The notes under the pieces: generated by a model
The model's input: the letters and a program-made list of their open reading frames with translations, nothing else
What the model was told of the DNA's origin: nothing
Database searches by the model: none
In this document: piece after piece, positions 1 through 22,222 of the stretch
How positions within the stretch are numbered: the first letter of the stretch is position 1
How the letters are laid out: each line of letters begins with the position of its first letter
NCBI GenBank assembly: GCA_964016885.1
Contig: OZ024742.1
Coordinates: forward strand, 316,696,001-316,760,000
Reading direction: 5' to 3'
Origin: Eledone cirrhosa
Lineage: Eukaryota
DNA length: 64,000 nucleotides
Made by a program: the position numbers and the translations under genes

Positions 1-3000
1 GAATCGTAAAAGCACATATCGTTATATGCTTTTTCTATGAAAATTAGTAGTGGGCAGACTAATTTGCATAGAGTGTGAGTAAGTACCGGTTCAACGGAGA
101 CGATAAAAACAAATAACGAAACGAAATTAAATTTCGTTTCGTTTGTAACTCACTTTTGTATGACTGACGCTTAAACAATTAAGTTAAAGATGTACATCCA
201 TATATGTATACTGAAATACTAGTATGTATATGAATACACACACGTATACATATGTAGATGTACCAAGTTTTTTCACTGGTCACTTTACTGTGAGTGGCCA
301 GCTATTCTGTATGTAAACACACAGACAAACCGGTTTTTAGAGTCATACTGGTTTTTGAGGAAACACCTTTCCTCTATTCTCCAGAAAGCCAGACAAGGAA
401 TATTGAACTAGTTTCGTTGTTGTTACAACTCATCAGCAATATTTACCTATCTTCCGGCCTCTCTAGAGAATCGTAAAAGCACATATCGTTATATGCTTTT
501 TCTATGAAAATTAGTAGTGGGCAGACTAATTTGCATAGAGTGTGAGTAAGTACCGGTTCAACGGAGACGATAAAAACAAATAACGAAACGAAATTAAATT
601 TCGTTTCGTTTGTAACTCACTTTTGTATGACTGACGCTTAAACAATTAAGTTAAAGATGTACATCCATATATGTATACTGAAATACTAGTATGTATATGA
701 ATACACACACGTATACATATGTAGATGTACCAAGTTTTTTCACTGGTCACTTTACTGTGAGTGGCCAGCTATTCTGTATGTAAACACACAGACAAACCGG
801 TTTTTAGAGTCATACTGGTTTTTGAGGAAACACCTTTCCTCTATTCTCCAGAAAGCCAGACAAGGAATATTGAACTAGTTTCGTTGTTGTTACAACTCAT
901 CAGCAATATTTACCTATCTTCCGGCCTCTCTAGAGAATCGTAAAAGCACATATCGTTATATGCTTTTTCTATGAAAATTAGTAGTGGGCAGACTAATTTG
1001 CATAGAGTGTGAGTAAGTACCGGTTCAACGGAGACGATAAAAACAAATAACGAAACGAAATTAAATTTCGTTTCGTTTGTAACTCACTTTTGTATGACTG
1101 ACGCTTAAACAATTAAGTTAAAGATGTACATCCATATATGTATACTGAAATACTAGTATGTATATGAATACACACACGTATACATATGTAGATGTACCAA
1201 GTTTTTTCACTGGTCACTTTACTGTGAGTGGCCAGCTATTCTGTATGTAAACACACAGACAAACCGGTTTTTAGAGTCATACTGGTTTTTGAGGAAACAC
1301 CTTTCCTCTATTCTCCAGAAAGCCAGACAAGGAATATTGAACTAGTTTCGTATTTCAGTATACATATATGGATGTACATCTTTAACTTAATTGTTTAAGC
1401 GTCAGTCATACAAAAGTGAGTTACAAACGAAACGAAATTTAATTTCGTTTCGTTATTTGTTTTTATCGTCTCCGTTGAACCGGTACTTACTCACACTCTA
1501 TGCAAATTAGTCTGCCCACTACTAATTTTCATAGAAAAAGCATATAACGATATGTGCTTTTACGATTCTCTAGAGAGGCCGGAAGATAGGTAAATATTGC
1601 TGATGAGTTGTAACAACAACGAAACTAGTTCAATATTTCTTGTCTGGCTTTCTGGAGAATAGAGGAAAGGTGTTTCCTCAAAAACCAGTATGACTCTAAA
1701 AACCGGTTTGTCTGTGTGTTTACATACAGAATAGCTGGCCACTCACAGTAAAGTGACCAGTGAAAAAACTTGGTACATCTACATATGTATACGTGTGTGT
1801 ATTCATATACATACTAGTATTTCAGTATACATATATGGATGTACATCTTTAACTTAATTGTTTAAGCGTCAGTCATACAAAAGTGAGTTACAAACGAAAC
1901 GAAATTTAATTTCGTTTCGTTATTTGTTTTTATCGTCTCCGTTGAACCGGTACTTACTCACACTCTATGCAAATTAGTCTGCCCACTACTAATTTTCATA
2001 GAAAAAGCATATAACGATATGTGCTTTTACGATTCTCTAGAGAGGCCGGAAGATAGGTAAATATTGCTGATGAGTTGTAACAACAACGAAACTAGTTCAA
2101 TATTCCTTGTCTGGCTTTCTGGAGAATAGAGGAAAGGTGTTTCCTCAAAAACCAGTATGACTCTAAAAACCGGTTTGTCTGTGTGTTTACATACAGAATA
2201 GCTGGCCACTCACAGTAAAGTGACCAGTGAAAAAACTTGGTACATCTACATATGTATACGTGTGTGTATTCATATACATACTAGTATTTCAGTATACATA
2301 TATGGATGTACATCTTTAACTTAATTGTTTAAGCGTCAGTCATACAAAAGTGAGTTACAAACGAAACGAAATTTAATTTCGTTTCGTTATTTGTTTTTAT
2401 CGTCTCCGTTGAACCGGTACTTACTCACACTCTATGCAAATTAGTCTGCCCACTACTAATTTTCATAGAAAAAGCATATAACGATATGTGCTTTTACGAT
2501 TCTCTAGAGAGGCCGGCAGATAGGTAAATATTGCTGATGAGTTGTAACAACAACGAAACTAGTTTAATATTCCTTGTCTGGCTTTCTGGAGAATAGAGGA
2601 AAGGTGTTTCCTCAAAAACCAGTATGACTCTAAAAACCGGTTTGTCTGTGTGTTTACATACAGAATAGCTGGCCACTCACAGTAAAGTGACCAGTGAAAA
2701 AACTTGGTACATCTACATATGTATACGTGTGTGTATTCATATACATACTAGTATTTCAGTATACATATATGGATGTACATCTTTAACTTAATTGTTTAAG
2801 CGTCAGTCATACAAAAGTGAGTTACAAACGAAACGAAATTTAATTTCGTTTCGTTATTTGTTTTTATCGTCTCCGTTGAACCGGTACTTACTCACACTCT
2901 ATGCAAATTAGTCTGCCCACTACTAATTTTCATAGAAAAAGCATATAACGATATGTGCTTTTACGATTCTCTAGAGAGGCCGGAAGATAGGTAAATATTG

Positions 3001-6000
3001 CTGATGAGTTGTAACAACAACGAAACTAGTTCAATATTCCTTGTCTGGCTTTCTGGAGAATAGAGGAAAGGTGTTTCCTCAAAAACCAGTATGACTCTAA
3101 AAACCGGTTTGTCTGTGTGTTTACATACAGAATAGCTGGCCACTCACAGTAAAGTGACCAGTGAAAAAACTTGGTACATCTACATATGTATACGTGTGTG
3201 TATTCATATACATACTAGTATTTCAGTATACATATATGGATGTACATCTTTAACTTAATTGTTTAAGCGTCAGTCATACAAAAGTGAGTTACAAACGAAA
3301 CGAAATTTAATTTCGTTTCGTTATTTGTTTTTATCGTCTCCGTTGAACCGGTACTTACTCACACTCCTCGCAAATTAGTCTGCCCACTACTAATTTTCAT
3401 AGAAAAAGCATATAACGATATGTGCTTTTACGATTCTCTAGAGAGGCCGGAAGATAGGTAAATATTGCTGATGAGTTGTAACAACAACGAAACTAGTTCA
3501 ATATTCCTTGTCTGGCTTTCTGGAGAATAGAGGAAAGGTGTTTCCTCAAAAACCAGTATGACTCTAAAAACCGGTTTGTCTGTGTGTTTACATACAGAAT
3601 AGCTGGCCACTCACAGTAAAGTGACCAGTGAAAAAACTTGGTACATCTAGATATGTATACGTGTGTGTATTCATATACATACTAGTATTTCAGTATACAT
3701 ATATGGATGTACATCTTTAACTTAATTGTTTAAGCGTCAGTCATACAAAAGTGAGTTACAAACGAAACGAAATTTAATTTCGTTTCGTTATTTGTTTTTA
3801 TCGTCTCCGTTGAACCGGTACTTACTCACACTCTATGCAAATTAGTCTGCCCACTACTAATTTTCATAGAAAAAGCATATAACGATATGTGCTTTTACGA
3901 TTCTCTAGAGAGGCCGGAAGATAGGTAAATATTGCTGATGAGTTGTAACAACAACGAAACTAGTTCAATATTCCTTGTCTGGCTTTCTGGAGAATAGAGA
4001 AAAGGTGTTTCCTCAAAAACCAGTATGACTCTAAAAACCGGTTTGTCTGTGTGTTTACATACAGAATAGCTGGCCACTCACAGTAAAGTGACCAGTGAAA
4101 AAACTTGGTACATCTACATATGTATACGTGTGTGTATTCATATACATACTAGTATTTCAGTATACATATATGGATGTACATCTTTAACTTAATTGTTTAA
4201 GCGTCAGTCATACAAAAGTGAGTTACAAACGAAACGAAATTTAATTTCGTTTCGTTATTTGTTTTTATCGTCTCCGTTGAACCGGTACTTACTCACACTC
4301 TATGCAAATTAGTCTGCCCACTACTAATTTTCATAGAAAAAGCATATAACGATATGTGCTTTTACGATTCTCTAGAGAGGCCGGAAGATAGGTAAATATT
4401 GCTGATGAGTTGTAACAACAACGAAACTAGTTCAATATTCCTTGTCTGGCTTTCTGGAGAATAGAGGAAAGGTGTTTCCTCAAAAACCAGTATGACTCTA
4501 AAAACCGGTTTGTCTGTGTGTTTACATACAGAATAGCTGGCCACTCACAGTAAAGTGACCAGTGAAAAAACTTGGTACATCTACATATGTATACGTGTGT
4601 GTATTCATATACATACTAGTATTTCAGTATACATATATGGATGTACATCTTTAACTTAATTGTTTAAGCGTCAGTCATACAAAAGTGAGTTACAAACGAA
4701 ACGAAATTTAATTTCGTTTCGTTATTTGTTTTTATCGTCTCCGTTGAACCGGTACTTACTCACACTCTATGCAAATTAGTCTGCCCACTACTAATTTTCA
4801 TAGAAAAAGCATATAACGATATGTGCTTTTACGATTCTCTAGAGAGGCCGGAAGATAGGTAAATATTGCTGATGAGTTGTAACAACAACGAAACTAGTTC
4901 AATATTCCTTGTCTGGCTTTCTGGAGAATAGAGGAAAGGTGTTTCCTCAAAAACCAGTATGACTCTAAAAACCGGTTTGTCTGTGTGTTTACATACAGAA
5001 TAGCTGGCCACTCACAGTAAAGTGACCAGTGAAAAAACTTGGTACATCTACATATGTATACGTGTGTGTATTCATATACATACTAGTATTTCAGTATACA
5101 TATATGGATGTACATCTTTAACTTAATTGTTTAAGCGTCAGTCATACAAAAGTGAGTTACAAACGAAACGAAATTTAATTTCGTTTCGTTATTTGTTTTT
5201 ATCGTCTCCGTTGAACCGGTACTTACTCACACTCTATGCAAATTAGTCTGCCCACTACTAATTTTCATAGAAAAAGCATATAACGATATGTGCTTTTACG
5301 ATTCTCTAGAGAGGCCGGAAGATAGGTAAATATTGCTGATGAGTTGTAACAACAACGAAACTAGTTCAATATTCCTTGTCTGGCTTTCTGGAGAATAGAG
5401 GAAAGGTGTTTCCTCAAAAACCAGTATGACTCTAAAAACCGGTTTGTCTGTGTGTTTACATACAGAATAGCTGGCCACTCACAGTAAAGTGACCAGTGAA
5501 AAAACTTGGTACATCTACATATGTATACGTGTGTGTATTCATATACATACTAGTATTTCAGTATACATATATGGATGTACATCTTTAACTTAATTGTTTA
5601 AGCGTCAGTCATACAAAAGTGAGTTACAAACGAAACGAAATTTAATTTCGTTTCGTTATTTGTTTTTATCGTCTCCGTTGAACCGGTACTTACTCACACT
5701 CTATGCAAATTAGTCTGCCCACTACTAATTTTCATAGAAAAAGCATATAACGATATGTGCTTTTACGATTCTCTAGAGAGGCCGGAAGATAGGTAAATAT
5801 TGCTGATGAGTTGTAACAACAACGAAACTAGTTCAATATTCCTTGTCTGGCTTTCTGGAGAATAGAGGAAAGGTGTTTCCTCAAAAACCAGTATGACTCT
5901 AAAAACCGGTTTGTCTGTGTGTTTACATACAGAATAGCTGGCCACTCACAGTAAAGTGACCAGTGAAAAAACTTGGTACATCTACATATGTATACGTGTG

Positions 6001-6526
6001 TGTATTCATATACATACTAGTATTTCAGTATACATATATGGATGTACATCTTTAACTTAATTGTTTAAGCGTCAGTCATACAAAAGTGAGTTACAAACGA
6101 AACGAAATTTAATTTCGTTTCGTTATTTGTTTTTATCGTCTCCGTTGAACCGGTACTTACTCACACTCTATGCAAATTAGTCTGCCCACTACTAATTTTC
6201 ATAGAAAAAGCATATAACGATATGTGCTTTTACGATTCTCTAGAGAGGCCGGAAGATAGGTAAATATTGCTGATGAGTTGTAACAACAACGAAACTAGTT
6301 CAATATTCCTTGTCTGGCTTTCTGGAGAATAGAGGAAAGGTGTTTCCTCAAAAACCAGTATGACTCTAAAAACCGGTTTGTCTGTGTGTTTACATACAGA
6401 ATAGCTGGCCACTCACAGTAAAGTGACCAGTGAAAAAACTTGGTACATCTACATATGTATACGTGTGTGTATTCATATACATACTAGTATTTCAGTATAC
6501 ATATATGGATGTACATCTTTAACTTA

Positions 6527-6530
<4 letters not shown>
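1..6530. mobile_element. 467-bp tandem array of a hammerhead-bearing non-autonomous PLE-type element (retrozyme-like), head-to-head inversion at 1350-1351
   Basis: Exact 467-bp period. Left arm 1-1351 (HHR on minus, cut by window start); right arm 1350-6530 (11 units + 44 nt, HHR on plus) ends AACTTAATTG then (TA)n. GT microhomology at the junction. Only a handful of substitutions between units. Confidence 0.9.
1593..1637 (+). ncRNA. Minimal type I hammerhead ribozyme (first of 11 plus-strand copies every 467 bp to 6263-6307; minus copies at 399-443, 866-910)
   Basis: AATATTG-CTGATGA-GTTG taacaa CAAC-GAAA-CTAG-TT^CAATATT: 7-bp stem I, canonical core, palindromic stem III (AACTAGTT), GUU triplet. 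Confidence 0.9.
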
Positions 6531-6611
<81 letters not shown>

Positions 6612-6618
<7 letters not shown>

Positions 6619-8926
6619 CACATGAAGGCGAACTACCCAGTTTTAGAATTCCCTTTTTCGGATTATATTACTGTGAGAGCCCTGGTTTTCTGTTGAGCTC
6701 TGCTGATGATTGAAATTCCAACCGTGACCATCTCCACTGAAAGTTTTCATGAAATAGTCTTTTAAGACTATACAGAGCATTTGATGTTATTCCAAATTGA
6801 AGGATAAGTGTTTCAAACTTTATTTTATCATGAGTTAAAGGTCTATAGATTTTCCATGGATTTTACTAAATTCTGTGGATGAATTTATATCCTGATTCTC
6901 TTTTGAGATGAGTTTGAATTATTTTTCCTAAATCTTTCGTTAACTACTTTTCCCATCTTGACGTTATAGTCGCATATATGTTATAGAATGCCGTTAGCTT
7001 CTTGCTAAAACAATCTCTATACCTCTCATTTATATTTATACTCGGATTCTTTTCCTAGAGTGCTTAAACTATCTGTGACTAATCCCGGTTTTTTTTTCAT
7101 AAAAACTGTGATAATTATTGCTATTTTGCTGAACTCCTTTGTAGAGTTTTTTTTTCAGAATGTATTTGACTGCTATTTCTTGTAAATAAACATTCACTTC
7201 CATCCTGACGTCACTAGCCCCGTTTTTTCCTCATGTGCTTTTTCATAAATACACATGAAGGCGAACTAGCCAGTTTTAGAATTCCCTTTTTCGGATTATA
7301 TTACTGTGAGAGCCCTGGTTTTCTGTTGAGCTCTGCTGATGATTGAAATTCCAACCGTGACCATCTCCATTGAAAGTTTTCATGAAATAGTCTTTTAAGT
7401 CTATACAGAGCATTTGATGTTATTCCAAATTGAAGGATAAGTGTTTCAAACTTTATTTTATCATGAGTTAAAGGTCTATAGATTTTCCATGGATTTTACT
7501 AAATTCTGTGGATGAATTTATATCCTGATTCTCTTTTGAGATGAGTTTGAGTTATTTTTCCTAAATCTTTCGTTAACTACTTTTCCCATCTTGACGTTAT
7601 AGTCGCATATATGTTATAGAATGCCGTTAGCTTCTTGCTAAAACAATCTCTATACCTCTCATTTATATTTATACTCTGATTCTTTTCCTAGAGTGCTTAA
7701 ACTATCTGTGACTAATCCCGGTTTTTTTTTTTTCATAAAAACTGTGATAATTATTGCTATTTTGCTGAACTCCTTTGTAGAGTTTTTTTTCAGAATGTAT
7801 TTGACTGCTATTTCTTGTTAATAAACATTCACTTCCATCCTGACGTCACTAGCCCCGTTTTTTCCTCATGTGCTTTTTCATAAATACACATGAAGGCGAA
7901 CTAGCCAGTTTTAGAATTCCCTTTTTCGGATTATATTACTGTGAGAGCCCTGGTTTTCTGTTGAGCTCTGCTGATGATTGAAATTCCAACCGTGACCATC
8001 TCCACTGAAAGTTTTCATGAAATAGTCTTTTAAGACTATACAGAGCATTTGATGTTATTCCAAATTGAAGGATAAGTGTTTCAAACTTTATTTTATCATG
8101 AGTTAAAGGTCTATAGATTTTCCATGGATTTTACTAAATTCTGTGGATGAATTTATATCCTGATTCTCTTTTGAGATGAGTTTGAATTATTTTTCCTAAA
8201 TCTTTCGTTAACTACTTTTCCCATCTTGACGTTATAGTCGCATATATGTTATAGAATGCCGTTAGCTTCTTGCTAAAACAATCTCTATACCTCTCATTTA
8301 TATGTATACTCGGATTCTTTTCCTAGAGTGCTTAAACTATCTGTGACTAATCCCGGTTTTTTTTCATAAAAACTGTGATAATTATTGCTATTTTGCTGAA
8401 CTCCTTTGTAGAGTTTTTTTTCAGAATGTATTTGACTGCTATTTCTTGTAAATAAACATTCACTTCCATCCTGACGTCACTAGCCCCGTTTTTTCCTCAT
8501 GTGCTTTTTCATAAATACACATGAAGGTGAACTAGCCAGTTTTAGAATTCCCTTTTTCGGATTATATTACTGTGAGAGCCCTGGTTTTCTGTTGAGCTCT
8601 GCTGATGATTGAAATTCCAACCGTGACCATCTCCACTGAAAGTTTTCATGAAATAGTCTTTTAAGACTATACAGAGCATTTGATGTTATTCCAAATTGAA
8701 GGATAAGTGTTTCAAACTTTATTTTATCATGAGTTAAAGGTCTATAGATTTTCCATGGATTTTACTAAATTCTGTGGATGAATTTATATCCTGATTCTCT
8801 TTTGAGATGAGTTTGAGTTATTTTTCCTAAATCTTTCGTTAACTACTTTTCCCATCTTGACGTTATAGTCGCATATATGTTATAGAATGCCGTTAGCTTC
8901 TTGCTAAAACAATCTCTATACCTCTC

Positions 8927-8930
<4 letters not shown>
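6612..8930 (+). mobile_element. ~632-bp tandem array (about 3.65 units) with one hammerhead per unit, flanked by (TA)n
   Basis: CATGAAG anchor at 6621, 7254, 7889, 8520; length differences lie in T runs; (TA)n on both sides. Confidence 0.88.
6697..6778 (+). ncRNA. Type I hammerhead ribozyme with extended stem II (repeated in each ~632-bp unit)
   Basis: GCTCTG-CTGATGA-TTGAAA...TTTCAT-GAAA-TAGTC ttttaa GACTA-TA^CAGAGC: perfect stems I and III, AUA triplet. Confidence 0.85.
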
Positions 8931-8998
<68 letters not shown>

Positions 8999-9001
8999 AT
9001 G

Positions 9002-9035
<34 letters not shown>

Positions 9036-9101
9036 TATGAGGGTGTTAAAGTTTGCTTGAAGCATTGTGAAATGTGTAAAATACGTAGAATTTGTATAGA
9101 A

Positions 9102-9245
<144 letters not shown>

Positions 9246-9248
9246 GTG

Positions 9249-9331
<83 letters not shown>

Positions 9332-9415
9332 AAAAATTGAACAGGGACAGAACAGAGAGGCAGTACGACAAATGTTTATTAGCTTCACGCTCAGGAGAGT
9401 GGGGGGTAGGTGGAG

Positions 9416-9449
9416 GACGACGTTTCGGGCATAAGCCCTTCTTCGGGTA
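9416..9449 (-). ncRNA. Hammerhead-like motif of the Neptune 3' UTR (CCGAAGA core, stem I unclear)
   Basis: Minus strand CCGAAGA-A-GGGC ttat GCCC-GAAA-CG-TC; resembles the intact HHR at 58915-58950. Confidence 0.55.
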
Positions 9450-10275
9450 AGAGTTCAAAAGGTGTGTAGGGGAGTGGTGGAGAGACATATAGCGAAAGGA
9501 AACGGTGCGAATAAAAAATTAACAAATAAAGACAAAATTATAATAAATAATAAATAAAAATAAAGCATGATCAAAATACAAGGAATGAGAACATTTAAAA
9601 ATAAAGGCATGATCAAAATAAACTGAAATTAAAAGGGGGGTAAACAGGTGGTGGAAGGGTGTGGGGTGAGTAGAGGTGGAGGCGGGTGGAGTGGGGAGAG
9701 GGAGACGGGGTGTCCGAGCGGGGAGGGCTGAAGGTGGTGTGTGTGGTTAGGTGTGTGTGTGTGTGTGTGTATGTGAAAGTGAGGGTTGGGGGAAGAACGG
9801 GGTTGCATGTTCAGGAAGGTGTGTGTGGGGGGTGTTTTTGTGTGTCGGAGGGTCTGTGCGTGTGTGGATAGGGGGTGGGGGGAGAGGAATCAGGGGGCTG
9901 AGGGTGTAAATATGTGGTGGGAAGCACGTGTGTGTAGTTTAAGCGTGTTGTGGGTGTGGGTGGCGTGTGGATAAACAAATTTGTTTTGGGATGTGTGTGT
10001 GGGTGAGTTATATAGGTGATGGTGTTAGAGGATGGTTGAAAAGTGGTAAGTTACACGGATGTATGGAGATTTTGGTTGGAAGTCAAAACGCGTGTGGGTA
10101 ATCCAAGAAGCGGTGGTCGGAAGAGGAGAGATGTGGGGTGCGCGCGCAACAGGAAGTGGTCAGCAGTGGAAGTGCTGTGGTCAGTGGGTGCTGAGACAGT
10201 GGTCGGAAGGGCATAGCAGCAGTCAGCGGAATGGTAGGGAGGCGAGGATGGGTAGGTGTGAGAGTTGGAGTGAGG

Positions 10276-10314
<39 letters not shown>

Positions 10315-10811
10315 TAGTAGGGGTGTTAGTGGGATGAGTGAGTGTGGAGTGGGGAGAGAAGGGTGTGTGTGGTTCTGTGGAGGGAGTGTGGTGTACTGGT
10401 GTGTGTGTAGTTTGGTGAGGAGGTGTTAGTGGGTGTTAGTAGACGGGAGGTGGGGAGGGGTGGAATGCAGGTGTGAGTGGGGGTTAGTGGGGGTAGGGTG
10501 TGTAGAGTGGTGGTGTACGAGGGTGTGTGGGTACGTGTGCGTGGGGTTGGAGGGTGTTAGTGATGTTAGTTGCGTGTGGGGTGGGTGGTGTAAGTGTGTG
10601 CGTGTGATAAGGAGGGGGGAGGAGGAGAAGAGGGGAGGGAAGGGATGTTAGTATGTTAGTTGGGGAAGGGTGGTTAGATGAGGGGTGGAGTGGGGGTGTT
10701 AGTATTGTTAGTGTGGGGTGGGCGGTGAAAAGGAGGGGTGTGTTAGTGGTGTTAGTGGGGGATAAGGGGGGAGGGGGGCGGTCGAACGCTAAAGGAATAA
10801 GGGTGGGGAGT

Positions 10812-12864
10812 TCAGGCCGGGGGGGGGGGGGTCTGTAAGATGAAGATAGTACGTTGTTCGACCGTGAGGCGATGGGCGGGTGTTCCGTGGCACTGGAGTA
10901 GGCCACAGACTGTGAGATGGTGTGCGGAGTGTCCAGGGCCACCAAAGTGGCGGGCGATGGGGGAACTGCCCCCGAGGCGAATGTCCCGGAGGTGCTCCGT
11001 GACTCGGTCCGCCAGGCGGCGTCCCGTCTGTCCGACATAAGTCGCGCTGCACCTCGTGCAACGAAGTCCGTAGACTAGGTTGGAGGAGGTGCAGCGGAAG
11101 GCATGCCGGACCGAGAGAGGGTGGCCGTTGGGACCCTGGAAGGTGGTGGTGTTGGTGATGTGGGGACAGGTGTTGCAGCGGGGCCTAGAACAGGGGAAGG
11201 AACCGGGGGGGGAAACGGAGCGTGGGTTGGGGGGTAGGGAGCTGTGGACGAGGAGGGTGCGGAGATTGCGTGCGCGTATGAAGGAGGGGAGTGGTGGGGT
11301 TGGGAAGATGTGGGAGGTGGAGGGGTCGGACTGGAGGTGTCGGAAGAGGCGGCGGATGGTGCGGTGGAGGGGTGCGGTGGAGGGGTGGTAGGTGATGGGG
11401 AAGGGGAGACGGTGGGTGGGTGTGCGGTGGCGTGGGGTGAGGGTGGTAGAGCGGGGGATAGCACGGGCGCGGGTGAGAGCGGTGTGGACGAGAGAGGGGG
11501 GGTAACCTCTGCGGATGAAATGGCTGACTAGGGAAAGGGCTTGGGACTCGAAGTCAGCATCTCGGCTACAGAGGCGGCGGATCCTGAGAAGTTGGGAGTA
11601 GGGAATGGAGAGTTTAGTGTGGGTGGGGTGGGAAGAGGTGAAGTCGAGGTAAGAGTGGGAGTCGGTGGGTTTGAAGAAGGCGGAGGTGACGAGGGAGTGG
11701 TGGGAGGGGTCGAAGGCGAGGGAGATGTCCAAGAAGTGGACGTGGGTGGTGGAGATAGAGGTGGTGAAGTGGAGGGAGGGGTGGAAGGAGCAGAAGAAGG
11801 AGAGAAAGGAGTCGAGCTGTACTCGGGTGAGGGTCGTGGCTCCGATACAGTCGTCAATGTAACGACCGTACAGTTCGGGCGTGGGGCCAGTGTACTGGGC
11901 AAAGATTTGGGCCTCAACATGGCCAACAAAAAGGTTGGCATAGTTCGGGCCCATTCTTGTGCCCATGGCTACCCCCGTGACCTGTTGGTAAAACTCACCC
12001 GAGAAGGAGAAACAATTTAGGGTGAGGACCAGCTCGGCGAGGCGAAGGAGGGTGGGGGTGGAGGGAATGGGGGAGGGGCGAAGGTCGAGGTAGTGTTTGA
12101 GGGCGCGAAGGCCGTCGGCGTGGGGGATGACGGTATAGAGGGACTTGATGTCTAGGGTGAAGAGGAATGGCTGAGGGCCGGGTAGGTAGGTGAAGGAGTC
12201 GAAAAGGCGCAGGGCGTGGTTGGTGTCAGAGATGTGGGAGGGGAGGGTGGTGACAAGGGGGGCGAGGAGGGAGTCGAGAAAGGCGGAGATGAGTTCGGTG
12301 GGGCAGTTGCAAGCGGAGACGATGGGACGGCCGGGGTTGTCGGGTTTGTGGAGTTTGGGGAGGAAGTAGATGGTGGGGGTGCGGGGTGTGCGGACGATGA
12401 GGTGGGAAGCGGTGGGGGGGAGGAGGGAGGAGGCGATAAGGTCTTTGATGGTGGAGGAGACTTGTTGTTGGTAGAGGGGGGTGGGATCGGAGGGTAGAGG
12501 GCGGTAAAAGAGGGGGTTACAGAACTGCCTGAGGGCTTCGGCCTTGTAGAGGTCCGCGCGCCATACCACCACGGCGCCTCCCTTGTCCGCCGGTTTGATG
12601 ACGATGTCATCTCGGCTACGGAGGGAGCGGAGAGCGAGGAGTTCGCCCCGTGAGATGTTGTGCCGTTTGGAACGGTGGCGGAAGTCGAAACGATTTACTG
12701 CGCTACGGCTGGCATCGACGAAGGCGTCCAGGGTGCTAAATTGCCCTGGGGCCGGCGTCCAAGAAGATGGTCGTCGGCCCAGGGCGGGAAACGGGTCTGG
12801 GGCGTCCGGAGCCGGTGGCGTTTGACCGAAATGTGCCTGTAGCTTAGTGCGTCGCACGAATCGC

Positions 12865-12868
<4 letters not shown>
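10812..12868 (-). CDS. PLE reverse transcriptase + Cys-rich linker + GIY-YIG endonuclease (N-terminally truncated)
   Basis: [74 protein letters not shown]. The listed YIYI N-terminus is microsatellite. The usual PxGLN end is in another frame after a 13-nt homopolymer at 10819-10831. Confidence 0.9.
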
Positions 12869-12955
<87 letters not shown>

Positions 12956-12983
12956 ATATATATATATATATGTATGTATATAT

Positions 12984-13444
12984 AATTAAGTTAAAAATGT
13001 ACATCCACATATGTATACTGAAATACTAGTATGCATATGAATACACACACGTATACATATGTAGATGTACCGATTTTTTCACTGGTCAGTTTACTGTGAG
13101 TGTCCAGCTATTCCGTATGTAAACACACAGACAAACCGGTTTTTAGAGTCATACTGGTTTTTGAGGAAACACTTTTCCTCTATTCTCCAGAAAGCCAGAC
13201 AAGGAATATTGAACTAGTTTCGATGTTGTTACATCTCATCAGCAATATTTACCTATCTTCCGGCCTTTCTAGAGAATCGTAAAAGCAGATATCGTTATAT
13301 GCTTTTTCTATGAAAATTAGTAGTGGGCAGACTAATGTGCATAGAGCGTGAGTACGTACCGGTTCAACGGTGACGATAAAAACAAATAACGAAACGAATT
13401 ACAAACGAAACGAAATTTAATTTCGTTTCGTTATTTGTTTTTAT
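12984..13444 (-). mobile_element. Diverged single copy of the 467-bp element with a short inverted arm (13399-13444)
   Basis: Aligns with the 467 unit with scattered substitutions; same 3' end (AACTTAATT) fused to (TA)n; HHR at 13205-13249. Confidence 0.88.
13205..13249 (-). ncRNA. Minimal hammerhead ribozyme with compensatory stem II change
   Basis: Stem II GATG/CATC versus GTTG/CAAC in the main array; rest of the motif identical. Confidence 0.88.
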
Positions 13445-13477
13445 GTATATATATATATATATATATGTATGTATATA

Positions 13478-13533
13478 TATGTAAGTATGTATGTATACGT
13501 ACATACATATATGTATACAGACGTACAGTAGCA

Positions 13534-13589
<56 letters not shown>

Positions 13590-14026
13590 CACGCAGGTAC
13601 ACATACATATATGCACGCCTCAGTATAGCGGACGTTTATTATAACGCCGCTTTGTTCGTTCGTTTGTCAACAAACCGAACAGCCTGAATTTATGCCATAC
13701 GGTGTTAAGGCAACCACGTCACCTTTTTGTTCAACACTGACACAGGAACGATGTACTAGTTTCAAGCTTGTTAGCTATCATCAGCACCGTTTACCCATCT
13801 GCCAGTTAGTTGAACGTTCGAAAGTATATACTTTCCTTATGAAAATTAACGGCTGAGCAGCCTAATTTGCATATTGAGTGAGTTAAATCGGTCAGGCATA
13901 CCGAAAACGATAAGTTGAAAAAAAATGAAAACGAAATTTCATTTCTCACTCTTAGTATGGCACTTACTTAAATGTAAGTATGTATGTATACGTACATACA
14001 TATATGTATACAGACGTACAGTAGCA

Positions 14027-14076
<50 letters not shown>

Positions 14077-14513
14077 CACGCAGGTACACATACATATATG
14101 CACGCCTCAGTTTAGCGGACGTTTATTATAACGCCGCTTTGTTCGTTTGTTTGTCAACAAACCGAACAGCCTGAATTTATGCCATACGGTGTTAAGGCAA
14201 CCACGTCACCTTTTTGTTCAACACTGACACAGGAACGATGTACTAGTTTCAAGCTTGTTAGCTATCATCAGCACCGTTTACCCATCTGCCAGATAGTTGA
14301 ACGTTCGAAAGTATATACTTTCCTTATGAAAATTAACGGCTGAGCAGCCTAATTTGCATATTGAGTGAGTTAAATCGGTCAGGCATACCGAAAACGATAA
14401 GTTGAAAAAAAATGAAAACGAAATTTCATTTCTCACTCTTAGTATGGCACTTACTTAAATGTAAGTATGTATGTATACGTACATACATATATGTATACAG
14501 ACGTACAGTAGCA

Positions 14514-14583
<70 letters not shown>

Positions 14584-14844
14584 CACGCAGGTACACATAC
14601 ATATATGCACGCCTCAGTTTAGCGGACGTTTATTATAACGCCGCTTTGTTCGTTTGTTTGTCAACAAACCGAACAGCCTGAATCGTTCCTGTGTCAGTGT
14701 TGAACAAAAAGGTGACGTGGTTGCCTTAACACCGTATGGCATAAATTCAGGCTGTTCGGTTTGTTGACAAACAAACGAACAAAGCGGCGTTATAATAAAC
14801 GTCCGCTAAACTGAGGCGTGCATATATGTATGTGTACCTGCGTG

Positions 14845-14896
<52 letters not shown>

Positions 14897-15011
14897 TGCT
14901 ACTGTACGTCTGTATACATATATGTATGTACGTATACATACATACTTACATTTAAGTAAGTGCCATACTAAGAGTGAGAAATGAAATTTCGTTTTCATTT
15001 TTTTTTCAACT

Positions 15012-15014
<3 letters not shown>
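13478..15014. mobile_element. ~487-bp tandem hammerhead element (relative of the 467 family) with internal (TA)n and head-to-head inversion at 14682-14683
   Basis: About 2.5 units left and 0.7 unit right. Shares ATGAAAATTA..GCAG.CTAATTTGCATA and AACGAAATT motifs with the 467 unit; both ends in (TA)n. Confidence 0.85.
13747..13791 (-). ncRNA. Minimal hammerhead ribozyme (second copy 14234-14278)
   Basis: AACGGTG-CTGATGA-TAGCT aaca AGCTT-GAAA-CTAG-TA^CATCGTT. Confidence 0.88.
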
Positions 15015-21963: not shown

Positions 21964-22222
21964 GGTGTGTGTGTATGCATGCTTTTGTGTGTGCGTGTTT
22001 TTGTGTGTGTGTTTGCATGTGTAGTTTTATTTTATTTTTCCTTTCCTTCTTCCCTTTCCAGCCTCACTTTCATATAGATTGCATTTTTGTTTTTAAAATC
22101 CAAATTCAATAAACAGACCAGGATTTTTCATTCTGAGGATTGAATGCAAAATCTTTTACTTTTAAGAAACTACTGGTAAATGGAATAATAAATGGAATAA
22201 TTGCCTTATGTTGTTTATTACA
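20850..22222 (+). mobile_element. Two related hammerhead modules (20854-20913, 22126-22185) separated by ~1.2 kb of mostly TG/TA low-complexity DNA
   Basis: TTTCATT-CTGAAGA/CTGAGGA-TTGAA...TTTAA-GAAA-C(C/T)ACTGG-T(G/A)^AATGGAA; both followed by TTGCCTTATGTTG. Confidence 0.7.

Follow-up and report, generated by a model that had tools for sequence, protein, structure and literature searches.

Known retrozymes and Penelope-like elements

Metazoan retrozymes that lack long terminal repeats (non-LTR) have been described as non-coding tandem units of low guanine-plus-cytosine (GC) content that carry a type I hammerhead ribozyme and are dispersed as dimers to multimers (Cervera and de la Pena 2020, PMC7229834; Li et al. 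2026 preprint, 10.64898/2026.07.22.740005). Their circular RNAs (circRNAs), proposed as intermediates, and a proposed mobilization by Penelope-like elements (PLEs) have also been published there; PMC7229834 names PLEs "a strong candidate", and the preprint states that the mechanism "remains to be elucidated". Here we describe an element with a 467-nucleotide (nt) unit in Eledone cirrhosa (assembly GCA_964016885.1, contig OZ024742.1, genome of 3.0 Gb). It begins to the left of a stretch of 64,000 nt (G000:C3:316696001-316760000), called the window below, and ends at window position 6531. With its tandem hammerhead units, lack of coding sequence, GC content of about 0.35 (under the 45 to 50% of known retrozymes) and dispersed copies, it is very probably a young non-LTR retrozyme insertion that bears the footprint of a PLE. 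Its unit is longer than the 170 to 400 nt of the 2020 paper and lies inside the 51-to-972-bp range of the preprint.

Endonuclease-positive (EN+) PLEs (PMC8557442, PMC3846280, PMC11167929) resemble this element in an inverted, 5'-truncated copy at the 5' end, a one-ended tail, a microsatellite or AT-rich target, a hammerhead with a palindromic stem III and two internal reverse transcriptase (RT) start sites. The 467-nt element differs in having no open reading frame (ORF), no detected match to a pseudo-LTR (pLTR), a tail of 74 nt and two arms that are both long multimers. Its end pairing is near-obligate, whereas the tail is described in the PLE papers as "optional" or "often at one end". The origin of the tandem, inverted and tail structures of PLEs is posed as an open question in PMC8557442, and the protein of an anole PLE, a predicted dimer, cuts and extends both strands and initiates at two internal sites, between which the tail lies (PMC11167929). 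Non-autonomous Chlamys PLEs such as MRC1 (PMC8557442) are comparable as multicopy, head-to-tail, PLE-driven elements, but their 3' end resembles that of the autonomous partner and their clade lacks canonical hammerheads. Retrozymes, tails and inverted copies are individually known already; in the text consulted from this literature we found neither two-armed, head-to-head retrozyme insertions with a short and a long fixed end nor a near-obligate pairing of start sites, and the word "inverted" occurs 0 times in PMC7229834. We read the insertion as the product of double priming by an EN+ PLE RT on both cut strands of a (TA)n target, with one probably circular or end-held 467-nt RNA as template, and put the probability of this reading at roughly two in three.

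Architecture of the insertion

The complete element consists of two head-to-head arms of 6.7 and 11.1 units with a (TA)n tract on either side. Tandem Repeats Finder (TRF) reports two 467-bp arrays in the window, at 1-1351 (2.9 copies, 100% matches) and 1350-6531 (11.1 copies, 99%), the first being the reverse complement of the second. Unit phase was counted from the predicted ribozyme cut, phase 1 being position 1631 in the first plus-strand copy. The left arm (1..1351, ribozyme sense on the minus strand) extends 1,766 nt to the left of the window, giving 6.67 units in total, and its 3' end is at phase 303 (the long site) in a (TA)n tract of about 235 nt. The right arm (1350..6531, plus strand) was recognized in the preliminary description as 11 units with a discrete 3' end; it contains 11.1 units and stops at phase 229-231 (the short site), next to a (TA)n tract at 6531..6618, the target site. 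Because both ends of the insertion are in (TA)n, a target-site duplication is unreadable. The arms meet 5' to 5' at 1350..1351, at phases 456 (left) and 187 (right), with a 2-nt microhomology, GT. The stretch between both fixed 3' ends (phases 230-303) forms a tail, found at 1393..1466 in the first plus copy and recurring every 467 nt, and public contigs show loose (TA)n ends at 1466, 1106 and 1037. Within the tail, the perfect 14-bp hairpin claimed earlier exists as a 14+1+14 inverted repeat (1426..1454), although the predicted fold is a 13-bp stem closed by a 3-nt loop.

No ATG-initiated ORF of at least 40 amino acids (aa) was found inside this array (the home array below), and the element is non-autonomous since it has no RT and GIY-YIG ORF of its own. 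In the motif scan, deviations from the array majority were found only at 1638, 2517, 2565, 3367-3369, 3650 and 4000, confirming all six substitution sites listed previously, and none in the minus arm. They represent six private variant events, all within six consecutive plus-arm units, with the other ~12 units identical. The array had been attributed to rolling-circle reverse transcription of a circle in one recent event. Reverse transcription of a structured ribozyme RNA in one recent event is supported, but the insertion is two-ended, with two fixed start sites, rather than a single rolling-circle arm.

A paired end rule in four families

The 44-nt ribozyme core has 4,863 exact copies in the genome (0 for the reversed control pattern), and DNA matches to the unit are spread over 9 contigs, so that the family is not confined to a single locus. 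The best DNA matches and the clusters among the first 100 core pattern matches provided 52 aligned loci; a second copy from the window brought them to 53, of which 37 were two-armed, and three loci were extended with further flanking DNA. Two 3' ends are fixed in this family, the short site at phase ~230 and the long site at phase 303, 74 nt apart. Among the two-armed loci, 35 of 37 have one short and one long end (35/36 scorable, binomial p = 5e-10 versus independent choice). The exceptions are L055, with two short ends, and L051, with a long end and a truncated arm; two long ends were found in 0 loci, and two further long arrays found later are likewise short plus long. All 35 two-armed loci of the joint survey were head-to-head, 29 of the 35 joints lying between 1 extra and 7 shared letters. 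The target is AT-rich or (TA)n, and public contigs of run X1 contain loose (TA)n ends at both sites as well as 12 other head-to-head joints. By alignment, 16 of the 52 loci were one-armed, four of them (L040, L044, L045 and L052) with a micro-arm of the opposite end type. The second window copy (12985..13445), which is older, has a 0.89-unit minus arm with a short-site end and a 0.1-unit plus arm with a long-site end. The comparison of array length and phase among loci suggested earlier revealed many dispersed loci, each with its own homogeneous array.

Two other hammerhead families in the window show the same arrangement. The 487-nt family (13475..15013), related to the 467-nt family and with 10,198 exact cores in the genome, is two-armed with short and long ends about 64 nt apart; stems I and II are wholly replaced with respect to the 467-nt ribozyme, with pairing kept. 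Nine of 11 loci (10 hand-picked mixed-strand clusters plus the window copy) were short plus long, L113 having two short-type ends and L115 an early short end. This family also contains an internal (TA)n stretch (13479-14683 and clusters on C1) whose length varies between units and loci, with spacings of about 460 to 540 nt. The 310-nt family (48719..51880, GUA cut) has 7.1 and 3.2 units head-to-head, short and long ends about 35 nt apart, and 4,033 exact cores. In a sample made up of the window copy and the 10 clusters at the head of the list, all 10 two-armed loci were short plus long, one further locus being one-armed. It is the youngest family, with 10 private substitutions in 37.5 kb after removal of 7 end-alignment artefacts. 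The three retrozyme families together comprise over 19,000 exact ribozyme cores, and a pattern for ACUAGU-type ribozymes, known families included, gave 23,488 matches in total.

A search for GIY-YIG domains produced 10,596 candidates, 150 of which were scored, and several of the scored loci showed RVT_1 with a C-terminal GIY-YIG, the layout of EN+ PLEs. One family of autonomous elements contains a hammerhead whose stem III is palindromic (AGUACU); its tandem period is 4.2 kb, and it includes dozens of intact RT and GIY-YIG frames of 775 aa, 98 to 99% alike. In the unit at L141 (G000:C1:147236500-147244000) a 476-codon open frame lies upstream of the 775-codon RT-GIY-YIG frame. Some copies are tandem and some are head-to-head. 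The endonuclease is preceded by a CxxxxCxxC motif, described as a feature of the Neptune/Nematis type (PMC8557442), which points to a putative PLE of that type. One short and one long end were found in 6 of 6 cases (5 head-to-head pairs plus L089), about 55 nt apart and both in (TA)n. As this PLE and the 467-nt unit have no detectable shared sequence, it is only a candidate driver, and a small share of the PLEs present came within the partner search. By our own estimate, a match of 14 nt between the tail of the PLE and the 467-nt unit's antisense is due to chance. In another PLE family, that of L081, end types were unscorable, the first (TA)n run apparently being inside the element.

Ribozyme and RNA fold

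At least 13 hammerheads had been counted in the preliminary description, and the motif scan found 13 type I cores in the 467-nt arrays, 11 on the plus strand (CTGATGA at 1600 + n x 467) and 2 on the minus strand (903 and 436). The ribozyme, AAUAUUG-CUGAUGA-GUUGU(AACA)ACAAC-GAAA-CUAG-UU^CAAUAUU (1593..1637 in the first plus copy), is composed of a 7-bp stem I, CUGAUGA, a 5-bp stem II, GAAA and a palindromic stem III, ACUAGU, in the type I core order CUGANGA / GAAA / UH. Self-cleavage is predicted at GUU^C, between 1630 and 1631. Across 24 aligned units the core columns are invariant, except for U17/C17 and one stem III change, stems I and II are present with G10.1-C11.1, and 4 of the 24 units carry a compensatory U-A to A-U change in stem II. 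The same stem II change is found in the window copy at 12985..13445. Rfam gave no family at the gathering score, the best being Hammerhead_HH9 with 38.1 bits (E 4e-8, gathering 52).

Folded as a circle, as had been proposed, the unit reaches -151.1 kcal/mol (z = -11.7 versus 60 dinucleotide shuffles; antisense strand, z = -6.1). The extension of stem I into a longer helix, also predicted earlier, is present in the circular minimum free energy (MFE) fold and in the 24-sequence consensus fold. In an alignment of 24 units, each taken from a different locus, 99.0% of the cells were paired and 7 of 150 base pairs had changed on both sides (23 cells), a value matched by 0 of 500 shuffles in a control that ignores relatedness. 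In energy models the ACUAGU self-duplex (-4.8 kcal/mol) is feasible and the monomeric stem III is unfavourable, in agreement with the earlier suggestion that the palindrome suits a dimeric form; it matches the dimeric fold via a short palindromic stem III that has been reported for metazoan hammerheads (PMC4209133). A viroid-like RNA with ribozymes in both polarities was rejected, as the scan found no hammerhead on the unit antisense.

Circular or linear template

Within a locus the arms differ by a median of 0.5%, versus 3.5% between loci (35 loci), and the arm consensuses are identical over 467 positions at the home locus, M27, M30 and L029. The 18 loci of at least three units yielded 17 distinct haplotypes, which indicates frequent single-unit bottlenecks; home and L040 share a haplotype. 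Among 207 crossings of the predicted cut site there was 1 indel within 5 nt. Arm 5' ends are enriched at phases 1-30 (15/74, p 6e-5), some of them after 11 laps, and the enrichment is also found in the consecutively listed subset (6/34, p 0.02).

These 5' ends, which gather just past the cut site, could also be explained if the template for the same PLE double priming were a linear RNA, transcribed from a source array as a multimer and cut only in part. The haplotype common to home and L040 fits such a transcript, and since about 55 loci were sampled, out of a total that probably far exceeds a thousand, source arrays may have escaped notice. Multimeric retrozyme RNAs are present in axolotl (PMC7229834), and the anole PLE accepts unprocessed RNA in vitro (PMC11167929). 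However, the partner arm overruns the cut-site stop in 6 of 14 scorable cases, so a single linear template ending at the stop is insufficient. In addition, the 17 haplotypes and the occurrence of new variants in all units of both arms (20/20 at M27) would require repeated monomer bottlenecks. We consider a linear multimer template unlikely. The 5' stops agree better with pausing on a circular or end-held monomer, at its ligation site or its long stem I helix, than with the end of a shared linear RNA, and we favour a circular RNA as the probable template. A clean 467-periodic circular contig from run X4, of unrecorded kind, was discarded as evidence for a circle, since a tandem DNA array would assemble alike.

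Arrays probably born long and later remodelling

A short two-armed insertion of PLE type might instead have been followed by satellite growth through unequal crossover or slippage. Higher-order variant sharing, the mark of unequal crossover to which the preliminary description had pointed, is found at five other loci: M30 (period 3), L042 (period 2), L004, L005 and a 31-unit array at C1:5.74 Mb. The last (L142-L143, G000:C1:5737000-5754500), with an arm of about 14 kb, period-3 sharing and a sub-unit opposite arm, is a retrozyme insertion turning into a satellite. Because such sharing exists at several loci, later local expansion does contribute in the 467-nt family. The confinement of the six home variants to consecutive units would also suit it, and local amplification has been proposed in the 2026 preprint (10.64898/2026.07.22.740005). 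In contrast, no variant is shared among the ~18 home units, and the long arms at home, M27, M30 and L029 have identical consensuses. The 310-nt loci, consecutively listed and nearly mutation-free, are yet mostly long in both arms. Satellite growth is therefore an improbable origin for the insertion as a whole; the arrays were probably already long at birth, some being remodelled later.

Variants within arrays are concentrated at the non-CpG phases 8, 25 and 26, with 6 to 8 events each versus 0.3 expected and three different bases at phase 25. RT errors made at each lap were rejected as their source because the frequency of hotspot variants scales with locus age (2/288 in young versus 23/371 in older arrays, p 1e-4). 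Phases 8, 22, 25 and 26 (1638, 1652, 1655 and 1656) are located on the 3' strand of the stem I helix and mutate, to several different bases, about 20 times faster than the background within arrays. The phase 8 change completes the inverted repeat and the phase 25 and 26 changes disrupt it.

Origin of the second arm

Only one arm might derive from RNA, the second being formed by fold-back or self-priming on the first complementary DNA (cDNA) or on an antisense template, with resolution by the endonuclease. Joints that are nearly symmetric, seen at L029 (within the 14-bp hairpin), L026, L112 and L115, could be taken as its trace (2 of 35 joints are near-symmetric in the 467-nt survey), the template span is compatible in 27 of 35 loci, and self-priming has been inferred from palindromic joints of rotifer PLEs (PMC3846280). 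Nevertheless, in 8 of the 35 loci, and in 2 of 10 of the 487-nt family, neither arm is inside the template span of its partner, which shows that the second arm did not arise simply by folding back on the first. The longer arm may carry either end type (22 versus 13), and fold-back alone does not explain the strict short-plus-long pairing, which makes this origin very improbable. Finally, an assembly artefact (read fold-back or expanded repeat) is of negligible probability: although none of the public contigs listed bridges the home joint and the copy number of a near-perfect array is uncheckable here, the two arms are unlike in phase, in length and in the type of their end, which excludes the mirror chimera among the assembly errors to be feared at this locus, each arm enters its own flank, both (TA)n ends and the 12 other joints are in public contigs, and the same end rule holds in four families.

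Proposed double priming by a Penelope-like element

Under double priming, the array would be transcribed and cut by the hammerhead, probably as a dimer through the ACUAGU palindrome, and the monomer would then be circularized or have its ends held together by the long stem I helix. The (TA)n target would be cut on both strands by a probably dimeric PLE protein, and cDNA would start at phase 303 on one strand end and at phase ~230 on the other, that is, on the two sides of the tail. Each cDNA could make up to about 13 laps of the template, often halting within 30 nt of the ribozyme cut site, where the stops are seen. The two cDNA 3' ends would be joined, mostly over 0 to 7 nt of microhomology, into the head-to-head joint that we observe, and some older arrays, judging by their variant patterns, may grow or shrink afterwards through local recombination. 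In LINE-1 twin priming, both target strands also prime and the cDNAs are joined head-to-head by microhomology, with the first primer at the poly(A) end and the second opportunistic. The 467-nt family differs in using two fixed, internal sites, and the template sequence copied into its two arms overlaps many times. A further step would be to regard PLE retrotransposition as obligately two-ended, a dimeric enzyme loading both tail-flanking start sites of one RNA circle, one per DNA strand, so that two RTs chase each other round it; we give this generalization an even chance.

Several observations weigh against double priming. U17, present in this ribozyme, makes a weaker cleavage triplet than C17. 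Within the 40 GIY-YIG loci searched for the 467-nt sequence, only a 467/487-family insertion matched, and the unit compared with the 4.2-kb PLE gave nothing better than E 0.11. An opposite micro-arm was not callable on inspection in 12 of the 16 one-armed loci. Array length shows no significant relation to within-locus divergence (rho 0.03; at least 5 versus fewer than 5 units, p 0.12), and the higher-order sharing described above belongs here as well. In the 310-nt family 5' ends do not cluster at phases 1-30 (2/21), and the correlation between arm lengths, with a rho of 0.61 in the 467-nt family, is 0.12. The tail is 74 nt long versus the 30 to 40 nt reported for PLEs, and in vitro the start sites of the anole PLE did not differ between strands, ribozyme cleavage being dispensable (PMC11167929).

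Other features of the window

Adjoining the insertion, between two (TA)n tracts, lies a ~633-bp tandem repeat (6612-8930, about 3.7 copies) whose multimers are scattered through the genome, fixed at one end (query position 429) and variable at the other; the matches listed for each locus were all on one strand. It had no hammerhead in the motif scan and no Rfam match at E 0.05, and is possibly a one-armed retro-multimer family with a different ribozyme or none. A relaxed scan detected single hammerhead-like motifs outside the arrays at 22133 (plus) and 55770 (minus), with more in L081, L086 and L093. The region 9000-13000 is GC-rich (55 to 62%) with a strong G skew, the rest of the window having 30 to 35% GC.

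Implications for retrozyme biology

At least three retrozyme families and a young intact PLE leave the same short-plus-long, two-armed footprint in one genome, which ties retrozymes to PLE chemistry through insertion anatomy and not through co-occurrence. A minimal in vitro substrate is suggested by these data: a 310- or 467-nt circle, a (TA)n target and the 775-aa RT-endonuclease. If PLE retrotransposition is indeed obligately two-ended, the arrays would be direct genomic prints of double rolling-circle reverse transcription. Animal retrozymes would then ride on PLE machinery, and the inverted copy and one-ended tail of PLE insertions would be explained.

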